IMG/VR virus record: IMGVR_UViG_2734482568_000006
DNA from: a virus
Lineage: Duplodnaviria > Heunggongvirae > Uroviricota > Caudoviricetes
Strand: one strand, 5' to 3'
Length of the DNA stretch: 47,553 nucleotides
Shown here: positions 5,666 through 47,553 of the stretch, piece after piece
Layout of the letters: the number at the start of each line of letters is the position of its first letter
How positions within the stretch are numbered: position 1 is the stretch's first letter
Translations under genes and position numbers: made by a program
The notes under the pieces: generated by a model
Told to the model about the DNA's origin: nothing
The model's database searches: none
What the model saw: only the letters and a program-made list of their open reading frames with translations

Positions 5666-6841
5666 ATGAATATTTTCACTTTATCCAAAGCACCGCTATA
5701 CCTGTTAATTTCACTATTTTTACCCACGATGGCCATGGCTATCGATCCACCTGAACGCGAACTTTCGCGATTTGCCCTGAAAACGAATTACCTTCAGTCC
5801 CCTGATGAAGGCGTCTATGAACTGGCGTTTGATAATGCCAGTAAAAAGGTGTTTGCAGCAGTCACCGATCGTGTAAATCGTGAAGCCAATAAAGGCTATC
5901 TGTATTCGTTTAATTCAGATTCGCTGAAAGTCGAAAATAAATACACGATGCCATACCGGGCATTTTCGCTGGCGATAAATCAGGATAAACATCAGCTCTA
6001 TATCGGACACACCCAGTCAGCGTCCCTGCGTATCAGTATGTTTGACACCCCAACCGGCAAACTGGTAAGAACCAGCGACAGGTTAAGTTTTAAAGCGGCA
6101 AACGCTGCAGATTCGCGTTTTGAGCATTTTCGCCATATGGTTTACAGCCAGGATTCCGATACCCTGTTTGTGAGTTATAGCAATATGCTGAAAACGGCCG
6201 AGGGCATGAAGCCTCTGCATAAGCTGTTAATGCTCGACGGGACGACGCTTGCCTTAAAAGGCGAGGTTAAGGATGCTTACAAAGGTACAGCGTATGGTCT
6301 GACGATGGATGAAAAAACACAGAAAATCTACGTTGGCGGAAGAGATTACATCAACGAAATTGATGCGAAAAATCAGACGCTGCTGCGTACCATCCCGTTG
6401 AAAGATCCGAGACCACAAATCACAAGTGTGCAGAATCTGGCGGTGGACTCCGCTTCTGACCGTGCCTTTGTGGTGGTATTCGACCATGACGATCGTTCCG
6501 GTACAAAAGATGGACTCTATATTTTTGACTTACGCGACGGTAAACAGCTTGGCTATGTGCACACAGGAGCCGGAGCTAACGCGGTGAAATACAATCCGAA
6601 ATATAACGAACTGTATGTCACCAACTTCACTAGCGGCACCATCAGCGTAGTGGATGCCACCAAATACAGCATCACCCGTGAATTTAACATGCCGGTCTAC
6701 CCAAACCAGATGGTGTTGTCGGACGATATGGATACCCTTTACATTGGCATCAAAGAAGGCTTTAACCGCGATTGGGATCCTGATGTGTTTGTGGAAGGAG
6801 CTAAAGAACGTATTCTGAGCATTGATTTGAAAAAGTCGTGA
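5666..6841 (+). CDS. YVTN-family beta-propeller protein (YncE-like), secreted
   Basis: Internal start MNIFTLSKAPLYLLISLFLPTMAMA gives a signal peptide; repeats such as LYVTNFTSGTISVVDA match the YVTN beta-propeller repeat. YncE-like proteins are commonly encoded next to TonB-dependent receptors. Confidence 0.6.
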   Translation: MNIFTLSKAPLYLLISLFLPTMAMAIDPPERELSRFALKTNYLQSPDEGVYELAFDNASKKVFAAVTDRVNREANKGYLYSFNSDSLKVENKYTMPYRAFSLAINQDKHQLYIGHTQSASLRISMFDTPTGKLVRTSDRLSFKAANAADSRFEHFRHMVYSQDSDTLFVSYSNMLKTAEGMKPLHKLLMLDGTTLALKGEVKDAYKGTAYGLTMDEKTQKIYVGGRDYINEIDAKNQTLLRTIPLKDPRPQITSVQNLAVDSASDRAFVVVFDHDDRSGTKDGLYIFDLRDGKQLGYVHTGAGANAVKYNPKYNELYVTNFTSGTISVVDATKYSITREFNMPVYPNQMVLSDDMDTLYIGIKEGFNRDWDPDVFVEGAKERILSIDLKKS

Positions 6842-7115
6842 TCGGGGGGAAAAAACATGGGATAAAAACTCCGTTATTCCACTAAACTGGCCGGACTAGG
6901 AAAAGCAAACATCTCTGTCCTGCCGGTACGCCTGTTACGCCGCTCCATGAGGCTGAGGAATCTCCAGAAAACGAGACAGGCACAGCATTGTACGATCAAC
7001 TGATTTGTGCCAATAATTAAATGAAATCACAGCTATGCCTGTTCATGGGGTTCTAGGCCGGAACCCCAGATTTTTCCGATTGTTTGTTTTCTAACTGATT
7101 ATTCAGTAGTTTTAG

Positions 7116-7152
7116 AGGGCTGACGCTCAGTGGAACGAAAACTCACGTTAAG
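7116..7152 (+). repeat. Tn3-type terminal inverted repeat copy (solo)
   Basis: agggctgacgctcagtggaacgaaaactcacgttaag matches the 38-bp Tn3 IR (GGGGTCTGACGCTCAGTGGAACGAAAACTCACGTTAAG) except at the outer few bases. Confidence 0.7.
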
Positions 7153-7181
7153 AGGTTTTGACTATGATAAAAGTCAAAGTA

Positions 7182-7219
7182 GGGGTGAGTTTGGATATGG
7201 AAATTATTGTACTATAAGG
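7182..7219 (+). repeat. Degenerate Tn3-family IR copy
   Basis: ggggtgagtttggatatggaaattattgtactataagg is about 34/38 identical to the IR at 7334-7372 and in the same orientation. Confidence 0.55.
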
Positions 7220-7333
7220 AGAGCATGAAAACCCCTGGGGCAGTCACTGAATGAGGGACCAGCAGCGGTAAAATAACCAGCATAATTTCTGCATGGTCGA
7301 TTTTTATACCGTGACAGGCTGTTTTTTATACTT

Positions 7334-7372
7334 GGGGTCAGTTTGGATATCGAAAATTATTGTACGTTAAGG
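7334..7372 (+). repeat. Tn3-family terminal inverted repeat abutting the tnpA 3-prime end
   Basis: ggggtcagtttggatatcgaaaattattgtacgttaagg has the GGGG...ACGTTAAG ends typical of Tn3-family IRs; the tnpA fragment stop lies within it, as in Tn3. Confidence 0.7.
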
Positions 7373-7828
7373 TTGTTTTTTGACCTTGTCGATCTTAACT
7401 GATCTCAAACGACGAAACTTACCTGAAGTCGGTATCCGGCTGTTTTTCCAGATATAATCGCCTGTCAGATTGATATGTTCCCAACCTAATGGTGATAAAT
7501 GCGATAATAGTTGAGCATTTATTTTCATGCCCTTACGCTTCAGAGCATCAACCGCTCTTTCCATGTAAACTGTGTTCCATAAGGAAATAGCCGCCGTCAA
7601 TAAAGTCAATCCACTGGCGCGATAACTTTGATTTTCCGGTTTCCGATCTCTAATCTCCCCCAATCGATGCATGAATACAGCACGGGCCAGAGCATTACGG
7701 GCTTCTCCTTTGTTCAGCCCGGCCTGGACACGTCGCCGCAATGCCGGATCCCGAAACCAGTCCAGCATAAACAGTGTTCGTTCTATACGGCCAATCTCTC
7801 TCAGAGCTTTAGCCAACCCATTTTGTTT
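7367..7828 (-). pseudogene. tnpA: Tn3-family transposase, C-terminal fragment (5-prime part removed by the IS66 insertion)
   Basis: Translation [30 protein letters not shown]...[18 protein letters not shown] matches the conserved C-terminus of Tn3-family TnpA; the ORF runs into the IS66 end at 7829. Confidence 0.8.
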
Positions 7829-8330
7829 GTAAGCGTGCAGCAAGAACCGTATTGACGGGAATGTGTTATTCAGTCGGCAGTGCTACGCGCCAGGGGAGCA
7901 GTTCGCCGACCCGGTTTATCGGCCAGTCGGCTATGACGTCAAGGACATAGCGGAGGTAGCTTTCTGGCTCCACTCCGTTCAGTTTGCACGTCCCGATCAG
8001 GCTGTACAGCAGCGCTCCCCGCTCTCCTCCATGATCCGAACCGAAGAACAGGTAGTTTTTGCGGCCCAGACTGACCATCCGCAACGCATTTTCAGCGATG
8101 TTATTGTCCGCCTCAGCCCAGCCATCATCTGCATAGTACGTCAGCGCCGGCCACTGGTTCAGGGCATATGCGAACGCTTTCGCCAGTTCTGAGTGTCGCG
8201 ACAGGGTTTTCATCTTTTCACGCAGCCAGCTTTCCAGGGATTTCAGCAGCGGTTTCGTTTTCAACTGACGTTCGGCAAGGCGCTGTTTCAGCAGGAAGAT
8301 GTCGTCAGAAGAGATGTCGTTCATAAGCCC
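7829..8330 (-). mobile_element. IS66-family element, distal fragment (terminal IR plus 3-prime part of tnpC)
   Basis: Terminus begins GTAAGCG (7829-7835), recalled as the IS66-family end motif, followed inward by the tnpC 3-prime end. The partner part (tnpA, tnpB) is at 47035-47553 on the far side of the prophage. Confidence 0.7.
7866..8324 (-). pseudogene. tnpC: IS66-family transposase TnpC, C-terminal fragment (about 150 aa of about 520)
   Basis: DDGWAEADNNIAENALRMVSLGRKNYLFFGSDHGGERGALLYSLIGTCKLNGVEPESYLRYVLDVIADWPINRVGELLPW matches the conserved IS66 TnpC C-terminus; the upstream frame is closed by a stop at about 8380. Confidence 0.8.
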
Positions 8331-8431
8331 GTATTTTACCGGGCTTATTCTGTGACAACCAGGATAAAGAGATTTACAGCATGGTCAGGGAGGTCAGCAG
8401 CCGCTTAGGCTGTCTATAGCGCGGCGATTTT

Positions 8432-8542: not shown

Positions 8543-9280
8543 TCATTCACTCTCTTTCAAACCAGTTTTAACTGTTTGTGGTTTTGGGTAAGGCTGGACT
8601 TTGAATAGCTTTGTGTTAAGGCGTTTTCTGGCTCTCTTGTCCAGAAACCGGATGTAACGAAACTGACGGAATTTATGAACACTGGCTCTGTCGATATTAG
8701 CCCGCAGATGTTCACCTCGCTGTCCTCCTCGTTTGATTGCATTCTTGCAAATCTCGTGATACCACTCGCCATCAAGTTCATAGAATGTTGTTTCATGACT
8801 GCCTACATAATCAAAATTGCTTGCCTGGTACACGACACCAAGACAGCCACAACGCTCATCTGCAAACGACTGAACCCACTGCACCTGCGGATAAAGTTGT
8901 CTGATTAGTTTGAGCGCGTAACTGATTGCCCTTGATTCGGAGTTTCTCGGCATACAGTCATGCAGCCATAACCGGTTAAGCTCCATATATTCGCGGTTCT
9001 GCGTGCCAGTTACGACGCGTGCACCATTGTTTGGATTAAGGGCATAACCCCATTGCATTACGCCAACCAGCTCCCGTTCTGAAAATATGCCCAGATGAAG
9101 GTAGGAATTATTTACGAAACGATGGCTGTAATGTTTATTGACGACGACCAGCCGGGCCAGCCAGCAACTTATTGTCTCAACCCGTAACTCACGGGAGCCA
9201 TAACCGACGATATTGTCGTTATAGTGAATAAGTTCAGGCGTGCTGATGATACGGGATGTAACTTGCTTTCTGTTCCCCAC
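8543..9280 (-). CDS. mom: Mom-like DNA modification protein (start uncertain, probably GTG at 9280)
   Basis: Position at the prophage end directly downstream of and overlapping a Com-like zinc-finger gene, as in Mu; size about 245 aa from the first in-frame GTG after the com region. The ORF track gives a longer 310-aa frame from 9475. Confidence 0.55.
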
Positions 9281-9434
9281 GACAGGATTTCCTTGTGTAT
9301 GTGGGGTGCTCTGTGGCGCTCTGAGATGTGATTTGATTGAGGGTTTTACAGCGCGGACATTTAACTTCCAGATAACTGAAGCTGGCTCGTGCCAGTAGCT
9401 TGTTACAATGTCGGCACCGTATGTTTCGATACAT
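9234..9434 (-). CDS. com: Com-like zinc-finger translational activator of mom
   Basis: [32 protein letters not shown] resembles Mu Com (..IRCKNCNKLLFKA..IEIRCPRCK..). AGGAGG lies 10 nt upstream of the ATG at 9434, and the 3-prime end overlaps the mom frame. Confidence 0.7.
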
Positions 9435-9570
9435 GGCCGCATAACCTCCTGCTTTGTTGTTGATATCTTTATCACTCAATCGATCGACAAAAACGATCGA
9501 TTTGATTTATTTAATTGATACAACAAATAACACGAAATGTCATTAGCGAAAATTTATGAGTTTGATCACT
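9435..9570 (-). promoter_or_regulatory. Candidate mom-operon promoter region with clustered GATC (Dam) sites
   Basis: GATC at 9482-9485, 9495-9498 (within cgatcgacaaaaacgatcg) and 9564-9567, upstream of com. Mu Pmom is controlled by Dam methylation of upstream GATC sites. Confidence 0.4.
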
Positions 9571-29509: not shown

Positions 29510-29589
29510 GGTCAGTGTACGCTTAACTGGTAAAGTCGGTGCCTGCCTCCGGGTGGATCATGTATGCGGGTTCGACCCCCGCCACTGAC
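29510..29589 (+). ncRNA. tRNA-like structured element (T-arm plus 7-bp acceptor-type stem; not a canonical cloverleaf by eye)
   Basis: gtcagtg at 29510-29516 pairs with cactgac at 29582-29588; gcggg-ttcgacc-cccgc at 29565-29581 forms a T-arm-like hairpin with a TTCGA loop. It is antisense to the phage late genes, in the F-G intergenic gap. Confidence 0.3.
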
Positions 29590-29591
29590 CG

Positions 29592-35293: not shown

Positions 35294-35597
35294 TGTGTTT
35301 TTTCCTTACAGCCTGCTCCAGCAGCAGTTCGTTCTGATGGGAGACGGATTTCAGGGTGGCATTGGTGGCCTTAAGCTCACCGCGCAGGGTGGTGATTTCG
35401 ATATTGAGTCTGTTCACCTCCTGCTGCGTGGGCAGGCCGGAAATCCGGCTCTCCACCCGCTCAACCCGGTCGGAGAGTTTTTCAAAGGCCTCGCGGGGGA
35501 CAAAGGTTTTGCGCATCAGCGCCATGAAGATCCCCCCGGCTGTGGCCGTTGCCGACAGGATCGGCACGACATAATCTTTAACGATGCTGACCCACAT
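35286..35597 (-). CDS. Membrane protein at the Mu gp25 position (releasin/holin-like lysis protein candidate)
   Basis: N-terminal TM segment (VVPILSATATAGGIFMALM) then coiled coil; lies within the lysis cassette. Confidence 0.45.
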   Translation of the reverse strand: MWVSIVKDYVVPILSATATAGGIFMALMRKTFVPREAFEKLSDRVERVESRISGLPTQQEVNRLNIEITTLRGELKATNATLKSVSHQNELLLEQAVRKKHNE

Positions 35598-35805
35598 GAC
35601 CGGCCTCCATGATGTTCTGGCAGTTCACACAACGGATGGCATCCGGCACGGCAACCAGACGGGCAGCCGGAATGTCACCCCCGCAGTCCGCGCATACACG
35701 CCTGCCCGGTGTCTCCGCCACCCGGCGCTTACGTGTCAGCCGGTCACAAAGGGCGCGTTCTGTTGCACGCTCCATGACTGCCTGAGCACAATCTGAATCA
35801 TCCAT
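35578..35805 (-). CDS. TraR/DksA-family C4 zinc-finger protein
   Basis: CADCGGDIPAARLVAVPDAIRCVNCQ matches the TraR/DksA zinc-finger signature; start placed at MDDSDCAQ. Confidence 0.65.
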   Translation of the reverse strand: MDDSDCAQAVMERATERALCDRLTRKRRVAETPGRRVCADCGGDIPAARLVAVPDAIRCVNCQNIMEAGHVGQHR

Positions 35806-38128: not shown

Positions 38129-38368
38129 ATGTCAGATATAAAAAATGCACTTGATGTTGCCGCATTCACAATGGCTGGAAATCTTATGGTAACCCTGTTC
38201 GATAAGGGGCTGATTTCCCGTGAGGAGGCAATACATATTATCAATCTCGCTCAAAAAAACTCTACCCCGGAAAATGCAGAAGATATCCAGGATGGCTCAT
38301 ATATTAATACCGACTGGCATTTCGACAATCTCCGGGCCTGTATGGGGATTACCGCTGAAAAAGATTAA
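38129..38368 (+). CDS. Hypothetical protein (79 aa) on the strand opposite to the phage early genes
   Basis: ATG with aaaagg RBS; 3-prime end overlaps the convergent minus-strand gene by 20 bp. Confidence 0.45.
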   Translation: MSDIKNALDVAAFTMAGNLMVTLFDKGLISREEAIHIINLAQKNSTPENAEDIQDGSYINTDWHFDNLRACMGITAEKD

Positions 38369-38636
38369 AAATTTTTGCATAATGTTCAGATGTAAGAATT
38401 GCTGAACCATCAACACCGAGCCTACGGCGAACGTATTCCTCGCGGGCTATTTTATTATCCAGAGATACAGCATCCTTAATCAGGTTAATCTCCCGCTCCA
38501 TTATCAAAAGGGCTTCTCTGGCTGCAAGATTTTCTTTTATCGCATATTCGATAATGTCCCGCATACGTTCAAGCATGCCGATTTTAGCCAGTTCTTCGTC
38601 GATAGATTTAGGCGCAAATTTGATTTCTTTTTCCAT
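38349..38636 (-). CDS. Hypothetical helical protein (about 95 aa)
   Basis: Start placed at MEKEIKF, immediately after the stop of the upstream cysteine-rich ORF. Confidence 0.45.
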   Translation of the reverse strand: MEKEIKFAPKSIDEELAKIGMLERMRDIIEYAIKENLAAREALLIMEREINLIKDAVSLDNKIAREEYVRRRLGVDGSAILTSEHYAKIFNLFQR

Positions 38637-38637
38637 A

Positions 38638-38781
38638 TTATTCATCCTCACAATTTATACATGCAGTGTCGTCGCCCATATCGCAGTGGTTACATTTTAT
38701 CTCACCACAATGTGGGCACTCTTTCAGATACTCCGGGTCCTCATTTCCACAGGTGGGACATTCAACAATTTGCTCATCCAT
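38638..38781 (-). CDS. Cysteine-rich zinc-ribbon-like small protein (47 aa), absent from the ORF track
   Basis: MDEQIVECPTCGNEDPEYLKECPHCGEIKCNHCDMGDDTACINCEDE with four CxxC pairs; start overlaps the upstream gene end (ATGGATGA) and the stop abuts the next start. Confidence 0.4.
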   Translation of the reverse strand: MDEQIVECPTCGNEDPEYLKECPHCGEIKCNHCDMGDDTACINCEDE

Positions 38782-39106
38782 TATGTATCCCCTGTAATTC
38801 CGGCAAGGCCGAAAGATGGCACCAGTGCGTCACCTGTCCGTCCTCATCTTCAAGGCAGGCTCCGGTTTCTTCATCAATAAAAAAGCCTTCATACCCCATA
38901 TGGCCGATGCGCAGTTCCTGTTGGTCACCATACTGAACAATCAGCACGACAGCCTCCATATCAGGCGGAAATGCGTCATCCAGTGAATGCCAGGGATAAC
39001 CGCGCAAATCCCCGAAATAAACGCCGGTCAGCGTTCCGCCACAGAGCGGCATTCCGGCGGCACACACAAGAGGTTCATCTGATTCAACAAATAAGGTCGT
39101 TATCAT
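38774..39106 (-). CDS. Hypothetical protein (110 aa)
   Basis: Translationally coupled within the early accessory operon; no recognised domain. Confidence 0.45.
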   Translation of the reverse strand: MITTLFVESDEPLVCAAGMPLCGGTLTGVYFGDLRGYPWHSLDDAFPPDMEAVVLIVQYGDQQELRIGHMGYEGFFIDEETGACLEDEDGQVTHWCHLSALPELQGIHNG

Positions 39107-39654
39107 GGCGTTAACTCCCGTAATACAGCGTCCTCGGCAGTCCGGCGACGGTAATAAACTGCGTGAGCAGAATGTTCAGATATTCCAAACTTTTCGCCAA
39201 TTTCCCGGAATGACAGACGGCGTGGGTAATCGGAATCACGCAGCTCACGTATAAGACGTACATCATCATCAGATATGCGCGTGCCGGGGCGTAACTCTCC
39301 GCACTTTGTTAATCCAGCACCAATCATTCCTGCCCGACATCTGACAGAATCTTTATTACGTCCGAGATATTCTCCCATTTGCTGGCAGGTCATTGTTCTG
39401 GCATTTTTTCGAATAAACTTATCTTCATCAGGTGTAAATCTTGGGTGTTTATATTTCAGTAACTCCGGGTATGAACTGCGCAATACACCAGTCCGGTTAT
39501 ATACAGCCCAGACAGTTCTTTTTATTCTGGCAGCAATATCCTTAACCGGGGTGGATGAATAAAGCGCAATCAGCAGCGCATCTTCTTCAGGTGTCCACGG
39601 ACGGACATGAGCGGGGGCGCGACCTTTTAGTCCCATGGGTTGTAATTTCATCAT
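39103..39654 (-). CDS. Putative DNA-binding regulator with Mor/C-like C-terminal helix-turn-helix
   Basis: C-terminus DDVRLIRELRDSDYPRRLSFREIGEKFGISEHSAHAVYYRRR resembles the Mor/C-type HTH; N-terminal WTPEEDALLIALY motif. Confidence 0.45.
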   Translation of the reverse strand: MMKLQPMGLKGRAPAHVRPWTPEEDALLIALYSSTPVKDIAARIKRTVWAVYNRTGVLRSSYPELLKYKHPRFTPDEDKFIRKNARTMTCQQMGEYLGRNKDSVRCRAGMIGAGLTKCGELRPGTRISDDDVRLIRELRDSDYPRRLSFREIGEKFGISEHSAHAVYYRRRTAEDAVLRELTP

Positions 39655-40851: not shown

Positions 40852-41382
40852 TTATTTATTCAGTCCGGCGTCCTGTTCAAAAGGCTCGACATAAAAACTT
40901 TCAGCGCCTTTATTCACCTTGATACCGGCAATGCCTTTCACAGCATCCGGCTCCGCCAGGACGGCTTCCTTGTTCACTTCCTCTTTCGTGCGGATGAAAC
41001 GCTCAAGCCCCATACGGCGCAGCATTTCAATCACACCTTCCACATCACGGCTGACGCTGCATGATGGCGTTCCCAGCCGCCATGACACCGTTCCGGTGGT
41101 CAGATTGGCTGTTTTGGTTTTGCCGCCGTTCGTCAGCTCATCACGGTTGGTTTTGCACCAGTCCTGAATCCCTTTAAAAAGCACTTTGATTTGCTTTTTA
41201 AGATTTTCAATCTGCGGCGTATAACGGGCGGTGATTTCTGCCACTTCGTCATTCATCGCCGTTTCCAGGCGCAGCGCCTCTCGCTGAATATCTCCCAGGG
41301 TGCGGATATCACGGCTGACTTCTTCCCGGGTCTGCGGTGCCGCCTCGGCTGCGGCCTTTAATTTTGTAACGCGTTTAGCCAT
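40852..41382 (-). CDS. gam: Gam host-nuclease inhibitor (Mu Gam / Ku-like DNA end-binding protein)
   Basis: IRTLGDIQREALRLETAMNDEVAEIT...ELTNGGKTKTANLTTGTVSWR...FIRTKEEVNKEA closely parallels Mu Gam. Confidence 0.85.
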   Translation of the reverse strand: MAKRVTKLKAAAEAAPQTREEVSRDIRTLGDIQREALRLETAMNDEVAEITARYTPQIENLKKQIKVLFKGIQDWCKTNRDELTNGGKTKTANLTTGTVSWRLGTPSCSVSRDVEGVIEMLRRMGLERFIRTKEEVNKEAVLAEPDAVKGIAGIKVNKGAESFYVEPFEQDAGLNK

Positions 41383-47034: not shown

Positions 47035-47358
47035 TCACCTGGTTATATGTCGCCAGTCGATACCTTCCAGCAGCATCGCCAGCTGCGCCTGTGTAAGGAA
47101 CACTTTGCCATCACGGGCTGACGGCCAGGCGAAGCGCCCACGCTCCAGCCGTTTGGTCAGGAGGCACAGTCCGTCACTGGTGGACCACAGCAGTTTAACC
47201 TGACTGCCGCTGCGGCCCCGGAAAATGAAAACATGGCCGGACATGGGATCGTCTTTCAGCGCCGTCTGTACTTTCGCAGCCAGGCCGTTGAAGCCATTTC
47301 TCATATCGGTGATACCGGCAACCAGCCAAATTTTGATCCCGGAAGGTAACGGGATCAT
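47035..47358 (-). CDS. tnpB: IS66-family accessory protein TnpB (orf2)
   Basis: MIPLPSGIKIWLVAGITDMRNGFNGLAAKVQ...GHVFIFRGRSGSQVKLLWSTSDGLCLLTKRLERGRF is the typical IS66 Orf2 sequence; its start overlaps the upstream orf1 stop (ATGA). Confidence 0.85.
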   Translation of the reverse strand: MIPLPSGIKIWLVAGITDMRNGFNGLAAKVQTALKDDPMSGHVFIFRGRSGSQVKLLWSTSDGLCLLTKRLERGRFAWPSARDGKVFLTQAQLAMLLEGIDWRHITR

Positions 47359-47553
47359 CGCTTCAGTTCCTGTATCAGCAGAGTCAGGAGCTTTTCGCTG
47401 ACATTGCCATTGAAGCGGAGCGTCCCGTGCCGGAACGTTACCTCACAGCTGATACTGAGGGTTTTCGGGTCCTCTGCGAGCGATTCTGGCTGTTCGGCAG
47501 CTGCATCGAGAGTCACAGGAAGTAGCTGGGGGCTCTCTGAAGAAGGTAATAGC
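47355..47553 (-). CDS. tnpA: IS66-family TnpA (orf1), 3-prime part; the gene continues beyond the window edge
   Basis: Frame ends ..HGTLRFNGNVSEKLLTLLIQELKR with the stop overlapping the tnpB start; no start codon within the window. Confidence 0.55.
   Translation of the reverse strand, partial: LLPSSESPQLLPVTLDAAAEQPESLAEDPKTLSISCEVTFRHGTLRFNGNVSEKLLTLLIQELKR

Follow-up and report, generated by a model that had tools for sequence, protein, structure and literature searches.

A small, acidic eight-cysteine protein of the gp13 type encoded in the early operon of a Mu-like Escherichia coli prophage

The early region of phage Mu contains a small gene, annotated as Mup13 ("gp13; previously called E14"; NP_050617.1, UniProt GP13_BPMU), which is not new, as it has appeared in listings as Mu ORF E14/gp13 ever since the left end of Mu was sequenced and is also included in PHROG 5584. 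A search of the accessible literature for Mu gp13, E14, Mup13, the sequence motif and the PHROG identifier returned no functional study of, and no experiment on, gp13 or any homologue. Several better described systems provide points of comparison. Mu itself has a zinc finger protein, Com, which is a translational activator, while Ocr, ArdA, T7 gp5.9 and Lar/Ral are phage proteins, small and acidic, that inhibit DNA enzymes of the host; these inhibitors resemble the product of the gene described here in being non-essential early phage proteins of small size and strong acidity. At the level of the cysteine motifs, the closest knuckles are those of C4 zinc ribbons and rubredoxin-type proteins, such as the RadA/Sms finger and the Pfam families Zn_Ribbon_1, DZR and Zn_ribbon_LapB, and the closest ligand spacing is that of the AN1 fingers (e.g., Cuz1, 5ij4, and ZFAND5), binuclear treble-clef domains that have two cross-braced metal sites (PMC5035049).

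The gene that is the subject of this report was found in a stretch of viral DNA of 47,553 nucleotides (the window), which contains a complete Mu-like prophage (∼8.5–46.9 kb) lying within the E. coli diguanylate cyclase gene dgcE/yegE. The 851 bases around the gene are 100% identical to the chromosome of E. coli strain HH35. The minus strand of the prophage carries, in order, repressor/ner-like genes, the transposase A and B genes, several small genes, Gam (40852–41382), gp11-like, gp12-like, SANT/Myb-like and DUF551-like genes, the gene in question, and then gp14-like, GemA, Mor and lysozyme genes. It thus occupies the Mu-type early (semi-essential) position between gam and gemA, directly before gene 14, and the placement in an early operon that had been proposed by the first-pass annotation is borne out, the ORF being a genuine small gene of the early operon of a Mu-like prophage. 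Relative to Mu, two extra genes are present between gp12 and gp13 (38774–39654, minus strand), one encoding a SANT/Myb-like, D5-like regulator (183 aa, phrog_323) and the other, immediately upstream of the gene (38774–39106, minus), a 110-aa phrog_6925 protein with weak similarity to DUF551 that is absent from Mu at this position. No terminator-like site was found on the minus strand from ∼43.0 kb, where there is a weak match inside the B gene, to 38.1 kb, and the gene therefore fits being in the early transcript. Two GC-rich hairpins followed by T-runs (38100–38081 and 37541–37518, minus) bracket the GemA gene, a short way downstream of the gp14/gp15 region, and may represent the end of the early transcript or attenuation points.

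Some other features of the prophage were recorded in passing. The split host gene is annotated by PGAP as fragments at 5876–8425 and 47047–47553, flanking about 8549–46800; one flank carries a diguanylate cyclase truncated at its N-terminus, and the other a MASE1-domain fragment truncated at its C-terminus. Within the early operon, a single gene runs on the opposite strand, a PGAP plus-strand gene (38129–38368, 79 aa) that is convergent with the gp14-like gene and shares 20 nt with the 3′ end of the latter; it lies where Mu has its antisense gene gp15. Among the head genes of the HH35 prophage, which is identical, PGAP annotates a "tRNA-OTHER" (29511–29590 of the window, plus strand), a location at which ARAGORN found no tRNA.

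The gene occupies positions 38638–38781 on the minus strand (read 38781→38638), as given by both the ORF list and the sequence, and its 47 codons, followed by TAA, encode MDEQIVECPTCGNEDPEYLKECPHCGEIKCNHCDMGDDTACINCEDE. The first-pass annotation had placed an ORF at exactly these coordinates, with no strand stated, and had described four CxxC pairs, all of which are present. On the minus strand these are C8-PT-C11 (38749–38760), C22-PH-C25 (38707–38718), which lies in the turn of a predicted β-hairpin formed by residues 19–21 and 28–30, C30-NH-C33 (38683–38694), which is preceded by a lysine, K29, that is 98% conserved, and C41-IN-C44 (38650–38661), which is followed by the acidic tail E-D-E. 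Between the third and fourth pairs is an acidic loop, D34-M-G-D-D38 (38668–38682, minus), and the complete eight-cysteine core, residues 8–44 (38650–38760, minus), has the form CxxCG-x10-CPxC-x4-CxxC-DMGDDTA-CxxC. Such a concentration of motifs is exceptional in this DNA. Of the stop-to-stop segments in the six frames of the whole window, 912 reach 30 aa, and the ORF is the sole one of these with at least three CxxC motifs; when the window was shuffled block-wise 200 times, four CxxC motifs within 47 aa never arose (0/200), compared with 24/200 for three.

The tight packing of the ORF that had been reported before is seen at both of its ends. Its ATG (38781–38779) overlaps the TGA (38776–38774) of the upstream 110-aa gene, with an 8-nt overlap in ATGGATGA, and a Shine-Dalgarno-like AGGGGA (38788–38793, minus) precedes the ATG by 6 nt, within the 3′-terminal part of the upstream gene; a DNA alignment places AGGAG at the same position in a related locus (L012). 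At the other end, the TAA (38640–38638) is separated by one base from the ATG at 38636 that PGAP assigns as the start of the downstream gene (38349–38636, minus; Mu gp14-like, phrog_6075), giving the junction TAATATG. At both ends the ORF is translationally coupled to its neighbour, and this coupling and the Shine-Dalgarno-like site are further signs of a real gene.

The relationship of the ORF to Mu gp13 is close. In a tblastn search, residues 7–47 of the ORF aligned with residues 20–60 of the 60-aa Mu protein with 88% identity (Mu NC_000929, 7528–7650, 87.8% identity, E 7e-17), and matches were also obtained in D108, SfMu and Yersinia Mu-like phages (88%). The ORF also matched phrog_5584 (function unknown) with an E value of 3.1e-26 over profile positions 20–60 of 60. 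The two proteins have in common their eight-cysteine core and acidic end, and the two genes their place in the early operon and the TAAnATG junction that leads into gene 14; judged by this resemblance the ORF is the orthologue of Mu gene 13 (gp13, Mup13, formerly E14), an identity missed by the first-pass annotation. They differ at the N-terminus, which consists of six residues (MDEQIV) in the ORF compared with 19 in Mu gp13 (MENNxTSYSWLGKFTTVKQ, overlapping gene 12), and in the upstream neighbour, which here is the DUF551-like gene preceded by the SANT/Myb-like gene and in Mu is gp12. DNA homology to Mu starts at codons 7–8 (GAATGY CC) and continues past TAAnATG into gene 14. Since the homology begins at codon 7 and the upstream genes differ, the first few residues of the ORF represent a mosaic junction, and alignments of both DNA and protein define a lineage-specific N-terminus, MDEQIVE, that includes it (38761–38781, minus), the recombination junction itself being codons 1–6 of the gp13 homologue. 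The N-terminal 19 residues of the Mu type are absent from the ORF product, and because this segment varies across the family, it does not define the domain.

Whether the gene should be called unannotated, as had been stated, depends on the resource. The description is correct for the E. coli chromosomes of RefSeq, where PGAP leaves a gap at the ORF in both identical and 95%-identical chromosomes. It does not apply to Mu, where Mup13 is annotated, nor to the NCBI and UniRef protein collections, in which the exact 47-aa sequence has accessions under the name "Mu prophage protein" and occurs on at least 1000 contigs; given these accessions, the gene was already known, albeit uncharacterised. In a protein collection clustered at 90% identity, the 47-aa protein has been assigned to a cluster that is led by, and consists mostly of, its non-homologous 110-aa upstream neighbour, which is apparently a clustering artefact that hides the smaller protein from word-based searches.

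Conservation of the cysteines and of the reading frame, the point on which the first-pass annotation had proposed that its claim should stand or fall, was observed throughout, with all eight cysteines invariant in 120 homologues and a dN/dS ratio of ∼0.1, and the ORF is a real gene under purifying selection. At the DNA level, all eight cysteines are kept in 52 loci, comprising 49 viral contigs, Mu, Klebsiella phage Kpn BU9 and one Thauera genome, the last being the sole return of a scan of genome contigs that used narrow patterns. Across the 37-codon core in 26 distinct DNA sequences, pS was near saturation (0.7–1) while pN was 0.06–0.3, the median dN/dS was 0.11, and variable columns numbered 22 at the third codon position versus 11 and 12 at the other two. 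A profile search of 1.84 billion cluster representatives gave 121 matches at E ≤ 1e-3, and a second search gave 145, which were the source of the 120-sequence alignment. The pattern CxxC-x(9-31)-CxxC-x4-CxxC-x7-CxxC with the CDMGDD loop, which the ORF carries, was complete with respect to its eight cysteines in 78 of 129 proteins, mostly representatives of 50%-identity clusters, and among its carriers the spacing of the second half is fixed at 4 and 7 while the first loop is variable. One homologue (P0009) seems to be without the first CxxC; its odd N-terminus, when back-translated, suggests a frameshift and not a real loss.

In the alignment of 120 sequences, the invariant positions are C8, C11, C22, C25, C30, C33, G36, C41 and C44, and at least 90% conservation is found at G12, P23, K29, D34, M35, D37 and D38. 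The acidic loop DMGDD is the most conserved feature of the family other than the cysteines (D 98%, M 95%, G 100%, D 92%, D 97%), and the family signature can be written as CxxCG-x(9-31)-CPxC-x3-K-CxxC-D-M-G-D-D-[VT]-x-CxxC with a short acidic tail after it. For neither the ORF nor any of the 120 relatives was the curated cutoff of a Pfam or NCBIfam model reached, and NCBIfam gave no match; the only matches were generic and sub-threshold, to zinc-ribbon, rubredoxin-knuckle, IBR, Prok-RING_2 and Lar families. This is, then, a phage domain family that has no description in Pfam or NCBIfam.

What kind of fold the conserved core adopts was addressed by structure prediction and by comparison with known fingers. 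With the 120-sequence alignment, AlphaFold gave a model with a pLDDT of 85.3 that contains one β-hairpin (19–21/28–30) with the second knuckle in its turn; a model from a shallow alignment of 11 sequences (pLDDT 58) was set aside. The eight cysteines in their four CxxC knuckles most likely bind two metal ions (zinc, possibly iron), and this binding is presumed from the invariance of the eight cysteines in knuckle motifs together with the confident, compact predicted model. Ligation could be sequential, with two consecutive C4 sites, or, as is suggested by the spacing and by weak fold matches, cross-braced and binuclear, similar to that of AN1, RING or PHD domains. The sequential alternative would combine a RadA-like ribbon with a CxxC-x7-CxxC site. 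Foldseek searches of the PDB and BFVD with the model returned nothing at E ≤ 0.001, and the top matches, all non-significant, were to binuclear fingers of the FYVE, PHD, HIT and RING types. A sequence search of the PDB gave only non-significant matches to the first half of the protein, to the RadA N-terminal zinc finger (E 0.06) and to eL40, and the likeness to the single-zinc RadA ribbon, non-significant as it is, favours sequential over cross-braced ligation.

The description of the protein as zinc-ribbon-like that accompanied the ORF from the outset thus holds in part. The first half, CPxCG-x10-CPxCG, resembles C4 ribbons and rubredoxin knuckles in both knuckle sequence and spacing, with matches that are sub-threshold only. 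The protein as a whole has eight ligands, and their spacing and the weak fold matches equally suggest a two-metal, cross-braced domain like those of AN1, RING and PHD. The C4 ribbon families cover only residues 7–27, and the invariant second half, KCxxCDMGDDxxCxxC, is without counterpart in them. The gathering thresholds of the classical C4 ribbons were not reached, the best being Zn_ribbon_LapB with 16.8 bits against a cutoff of 25.7, with the others lower. The threshold of the Lar family (PF14354) was likewise not reached, either by the ORF (E 0.43, 11.3 bits versus a cutoff of 28.6) or by the best of the 120 members (E 0.0048). As to AN1, its ligand spacing, Cx2C-x10-CxC-x4-Cx2H-x5-HxC, was confirmed in AN1 sequences, and the spacing of the first six ligands is common to AN1 and the phage domain. 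The two differ in that AN1 fingers have Cys6His2 ligands (C-x2-C-x(9-12)-C-x(1-2)-C-x4-C-x2-H-x5-H-x-C) while all eight are cysteines in the phage domain, and in the last spacing, which is x7/x2 in the phage domain and x5/x1 in AN1. An hhalign comparison of the family alignment with three solved AN1 domains gave a probability of 0.9%, and zf-AN1 is missing from the 25 Pfam families with the most matches among the 120 members at E ≤ 1. Membership of the AN1 family was therefore rejected at the level of sequence, as the phage domain is all-cysteine, ends differently and has no profile similarity to AN1.

The most distinctive chemical property of the protein is its acidity. The ORF product has 14 Asp/Glu residues, two lysines and no arginine, with a net charge of −12.4, and among the 120 homologues 99% of the proteins, 97% of the cores and 97.5% of the tails are net acidic. 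Acidity that extends across the family argues against a nucleic-acid-binding finger and favours a basic protein surface as the partner; by itself it does not prove protein binding. Of the roles put forward in the first-pass annotation, a regulator or inhibitor of host proteins, this acidity makes a regulator that binds nucleic acid less likely and is compatible with a protein-binding factor. Our preferred reading, held with a little more than even confidence, is that this is a translated accessory early gene, the product of which would be a two-metal, eight-cysteine acidic domain that docks on a basic host or phage protein. A protein-binding module is most likely in view of the strongly negative charge, the lack of arginine and the net acidity of nearly all homologues. 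With a mass of ∼5.3 kDa, the product would consist almost wholly of one compact domain in which the metal sites would serve as scaffolding, and the working surface would most likely be formed by the acidic C-terminal tail and the near-invariant loop C-D-M-G-D-D-[V/T]-x-C, which is also acidic. Docking onto the basic surface of the host or phage protein would belong to the early stage of lytic growth, and the most probable mode of action is that of a small accessory factor that binds protein during early lytic development.

The genomic contexts of the family were compared for indications of what such a partner might be. All contexts examined belong to phages or prophages, and the gene lies within series of small genes that share its direction. 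The neighbours of the gp13-family gene vary in Mu-like early regions, and in one Mu-like prophage it sits between gp27 and terminase. In lambdoid accessory regions, where integrase is also found, it adjoins Rv2179c-like or RNase_T exonucleases and Ead/Ea22, in a 60-kb Klebsiella phage it lies directly upstream of genes for a DUF2800/PD-(D/E)XK nuclease and a Gp2.5-like annealing protein, and in phage-like contigs of 66–209 kb it is near genes for gyrase/topoisomerase IV, ligase or 5′-3′ exonuclease. A synteny census of 20 or more loci found no conserved neighbour of the gp13-family gene, and synteny gives no partner because the neighbours differ between loci.

The domain itself is modular. In most family members it is a stand-alone protein of 46–82 aa, and C-terminal fusions of it to at least six unrelated N-terminal regions were found. 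In four loci from E. coli Mu-like prophages (L016–L019; e.g., L016 3302–4126; proteins P0240 and P0247), gp12 is replaced by a phrog_2510-like gene fused in frame to the gp13 domain, the product being a 231-aa phrog_6418 protein. Two diverged versions keep this fusion, which is therefore not a sequencing error. The corresponding frame of 252/274 codons was considered as a gp12-gp13 fusion and rejected, since its N-terminal part is a different, phrog_2510-like protein, and because DNA and protein comparisons show that this part replaces gp12, the idea of a partnership between gp13 and gp12 was dropped. A recurrent architecture of ∼155 aa (P0021, P0038, P0067 and P0080) joins an N-terminal Phage_ProQ_C_like domain, with borderline Pfam scores of 26.6 and 19.7 bits versus a cutoff of 27, to a gp13-type domain.

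A bolder form of the protein-binding reading, possible but tentative, is that the gp13 domain would be a previously undescribed, phage-specific, binuclear, all-cysteine finger (KCxxCDMGDD[VT]xCxxC plus acidic tail) that would function as a portable "warhead" neutralising a basic host protein that is conserved, such as an enzyme that processes DNA ends or a nuclease-based factor of host defence. Mu-like, lambdoid, T7-replication-type and jumbo phages would all employ it, as a protein by itself or joined to N-terminal domains of various kinds. Were the protein a host-targeting or anti-defence factor of this kind, a function would be provided for a long-unexplained gene of the semi-essential early region of Mu and for its relatives in many other phages. 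As it stands, this is a well-conserved and already catalogued gene, and the uncurated family and the gap in RefSeq annotation are of modest value. What is added here is that PGAP consistently fails to call the gene in E. coli chromosomes that carry this prophage, that the family is sharply defined, with eight cysteines, strong acidity and ∼80 clusters at 50% identity that have the full pattern, all in phage contexts, and that the gp13 domain is modular.

The alternative that survives best is a narrower version of the protein-binding explanation and is also the most specific live hypothesis, although we regard it as unlikely. It holds that the protein would be a decoy or inhibitor of DNA-processing enzymes, whether these are exonucleases of the host, defence systems based on restriction or other nucleases, or the phage's own nucleases, by acting as a small acidic mimic of nucleic acid. 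The extreme acidity kept across the family is in its favour, as is the gene order in Mu-like phages, where the gene is 2–4 genes downstream of that for the nuclease inhibitor Gam. A nuclease gene is also directly downstream or within ∼1.2 kb in several non-Mu phages, encoding an Rv2179c-like 3′-5′ exonuclease in L047, L048 and L050 (4122–4754) and in L051 and L052 (2145–2753), an RNase_T-type exonuclease in L045 (2119–2826) and the DUF2800/PD-(D/E)XK nuclease in L004 (4154–5299), and DNA ligase or 5′-3′ exonuclease is nearby in L062 and L065. However, there is no nuclease or ligase association in L055, L058, L063, L064 and L066, and as genes for nucleases and ligases occur commonly in the early regions of phages, the association is anecdotal; the recurrence of nucleases nearby, along with the presence of Gam in Mu, is suggestive and inconsistent across loci. 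Weak matches to the Lar restriction-alleviation family were given by 38 of the 120 members, but these are sub-threshold and far below the curated cutoff, as is typical of generic similarity between cysteine knuckles. A domain of ∼40 residues is, moreover, small for a DNA mimic. The known DNA mimics are larger and not metal-stabilised, and the small acidic inhibitors, Lar/Ral included, have no significant similarity to the ORF product in sequence or fold, the analogy being one of possible mechanism only.

The fusions bring in a second alternative, which is distinctly unlikely, namely that the domain has no target of its own and is a detachable C-terminal module that would act jointly with the product of an adjacent gene, for example in the oligomerisation, stability or localisation of that product. 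In-frame C-terminal fusion to several unrelated proteins, including phrog_6418 and those with the Phage_ProQ_C_like domain, is in its favour, as is the translational coupling of the stand-alone gene to both neighbours. Set against this are the prevalence of the stand-alone form in the family and the variation between phages of both the upstream neighbour (gp12, gp11 or a DUF551-like gene) and the downstream one (gp14, f7, GemA or exonuclease). A third proposal, that of a zinc-finger regulator of transcription or translation that binds nucleic acid in a manner analogous to Mu Com, is very improbable. Many small Cys4 fingers do bind DNA or RNA, Com provides a precedent within Mu itself, and the gene sits among regulators (GemA, Mor and the SANT/Myb-like protein), but the balance of 14 acidic residues against two lysines and no arginine, for a charge of approximately −12, is contrary to such a role, as is the net acidity of 99% of the homologues in a family where aspartates are the most conserved residues other than the cysteines, and there was no match above threshold to any family of DNA- or RNA-binding fingers. 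Both the detachable-module and the regulator roles are less likely than a protein-binding factor or decoy. Last, a chance ORF, or one that is the shadow of a real gene in the overlapping plus-strand ORF (38554–38880, 108 aa), has a negligible probability and is already refuted by conservation, since, even though antisense frames across the region are often open and an antisense ORF was "putative" in a 1990s record of the Mu left end, the minus-strand frame is under purifying selection with variability at third positions, the eight cysteines are invariant down to ∼40% identity, and open antisense frames are expected opposite coding sequence rich in TGY, GAY and GAR, with stops appearing in more distant loci.

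The gp13 homologue is not the only small, cysteine-rich gene of this prophage. Two other small zinc-finger genes of this kind are found on the minus strand at 9240–9440 and 35578–35805, and they encode a Com-family regulator and a TraR/DksA-family protein, both of which, unlike the gp13 homologue, are annotated by PGAP.
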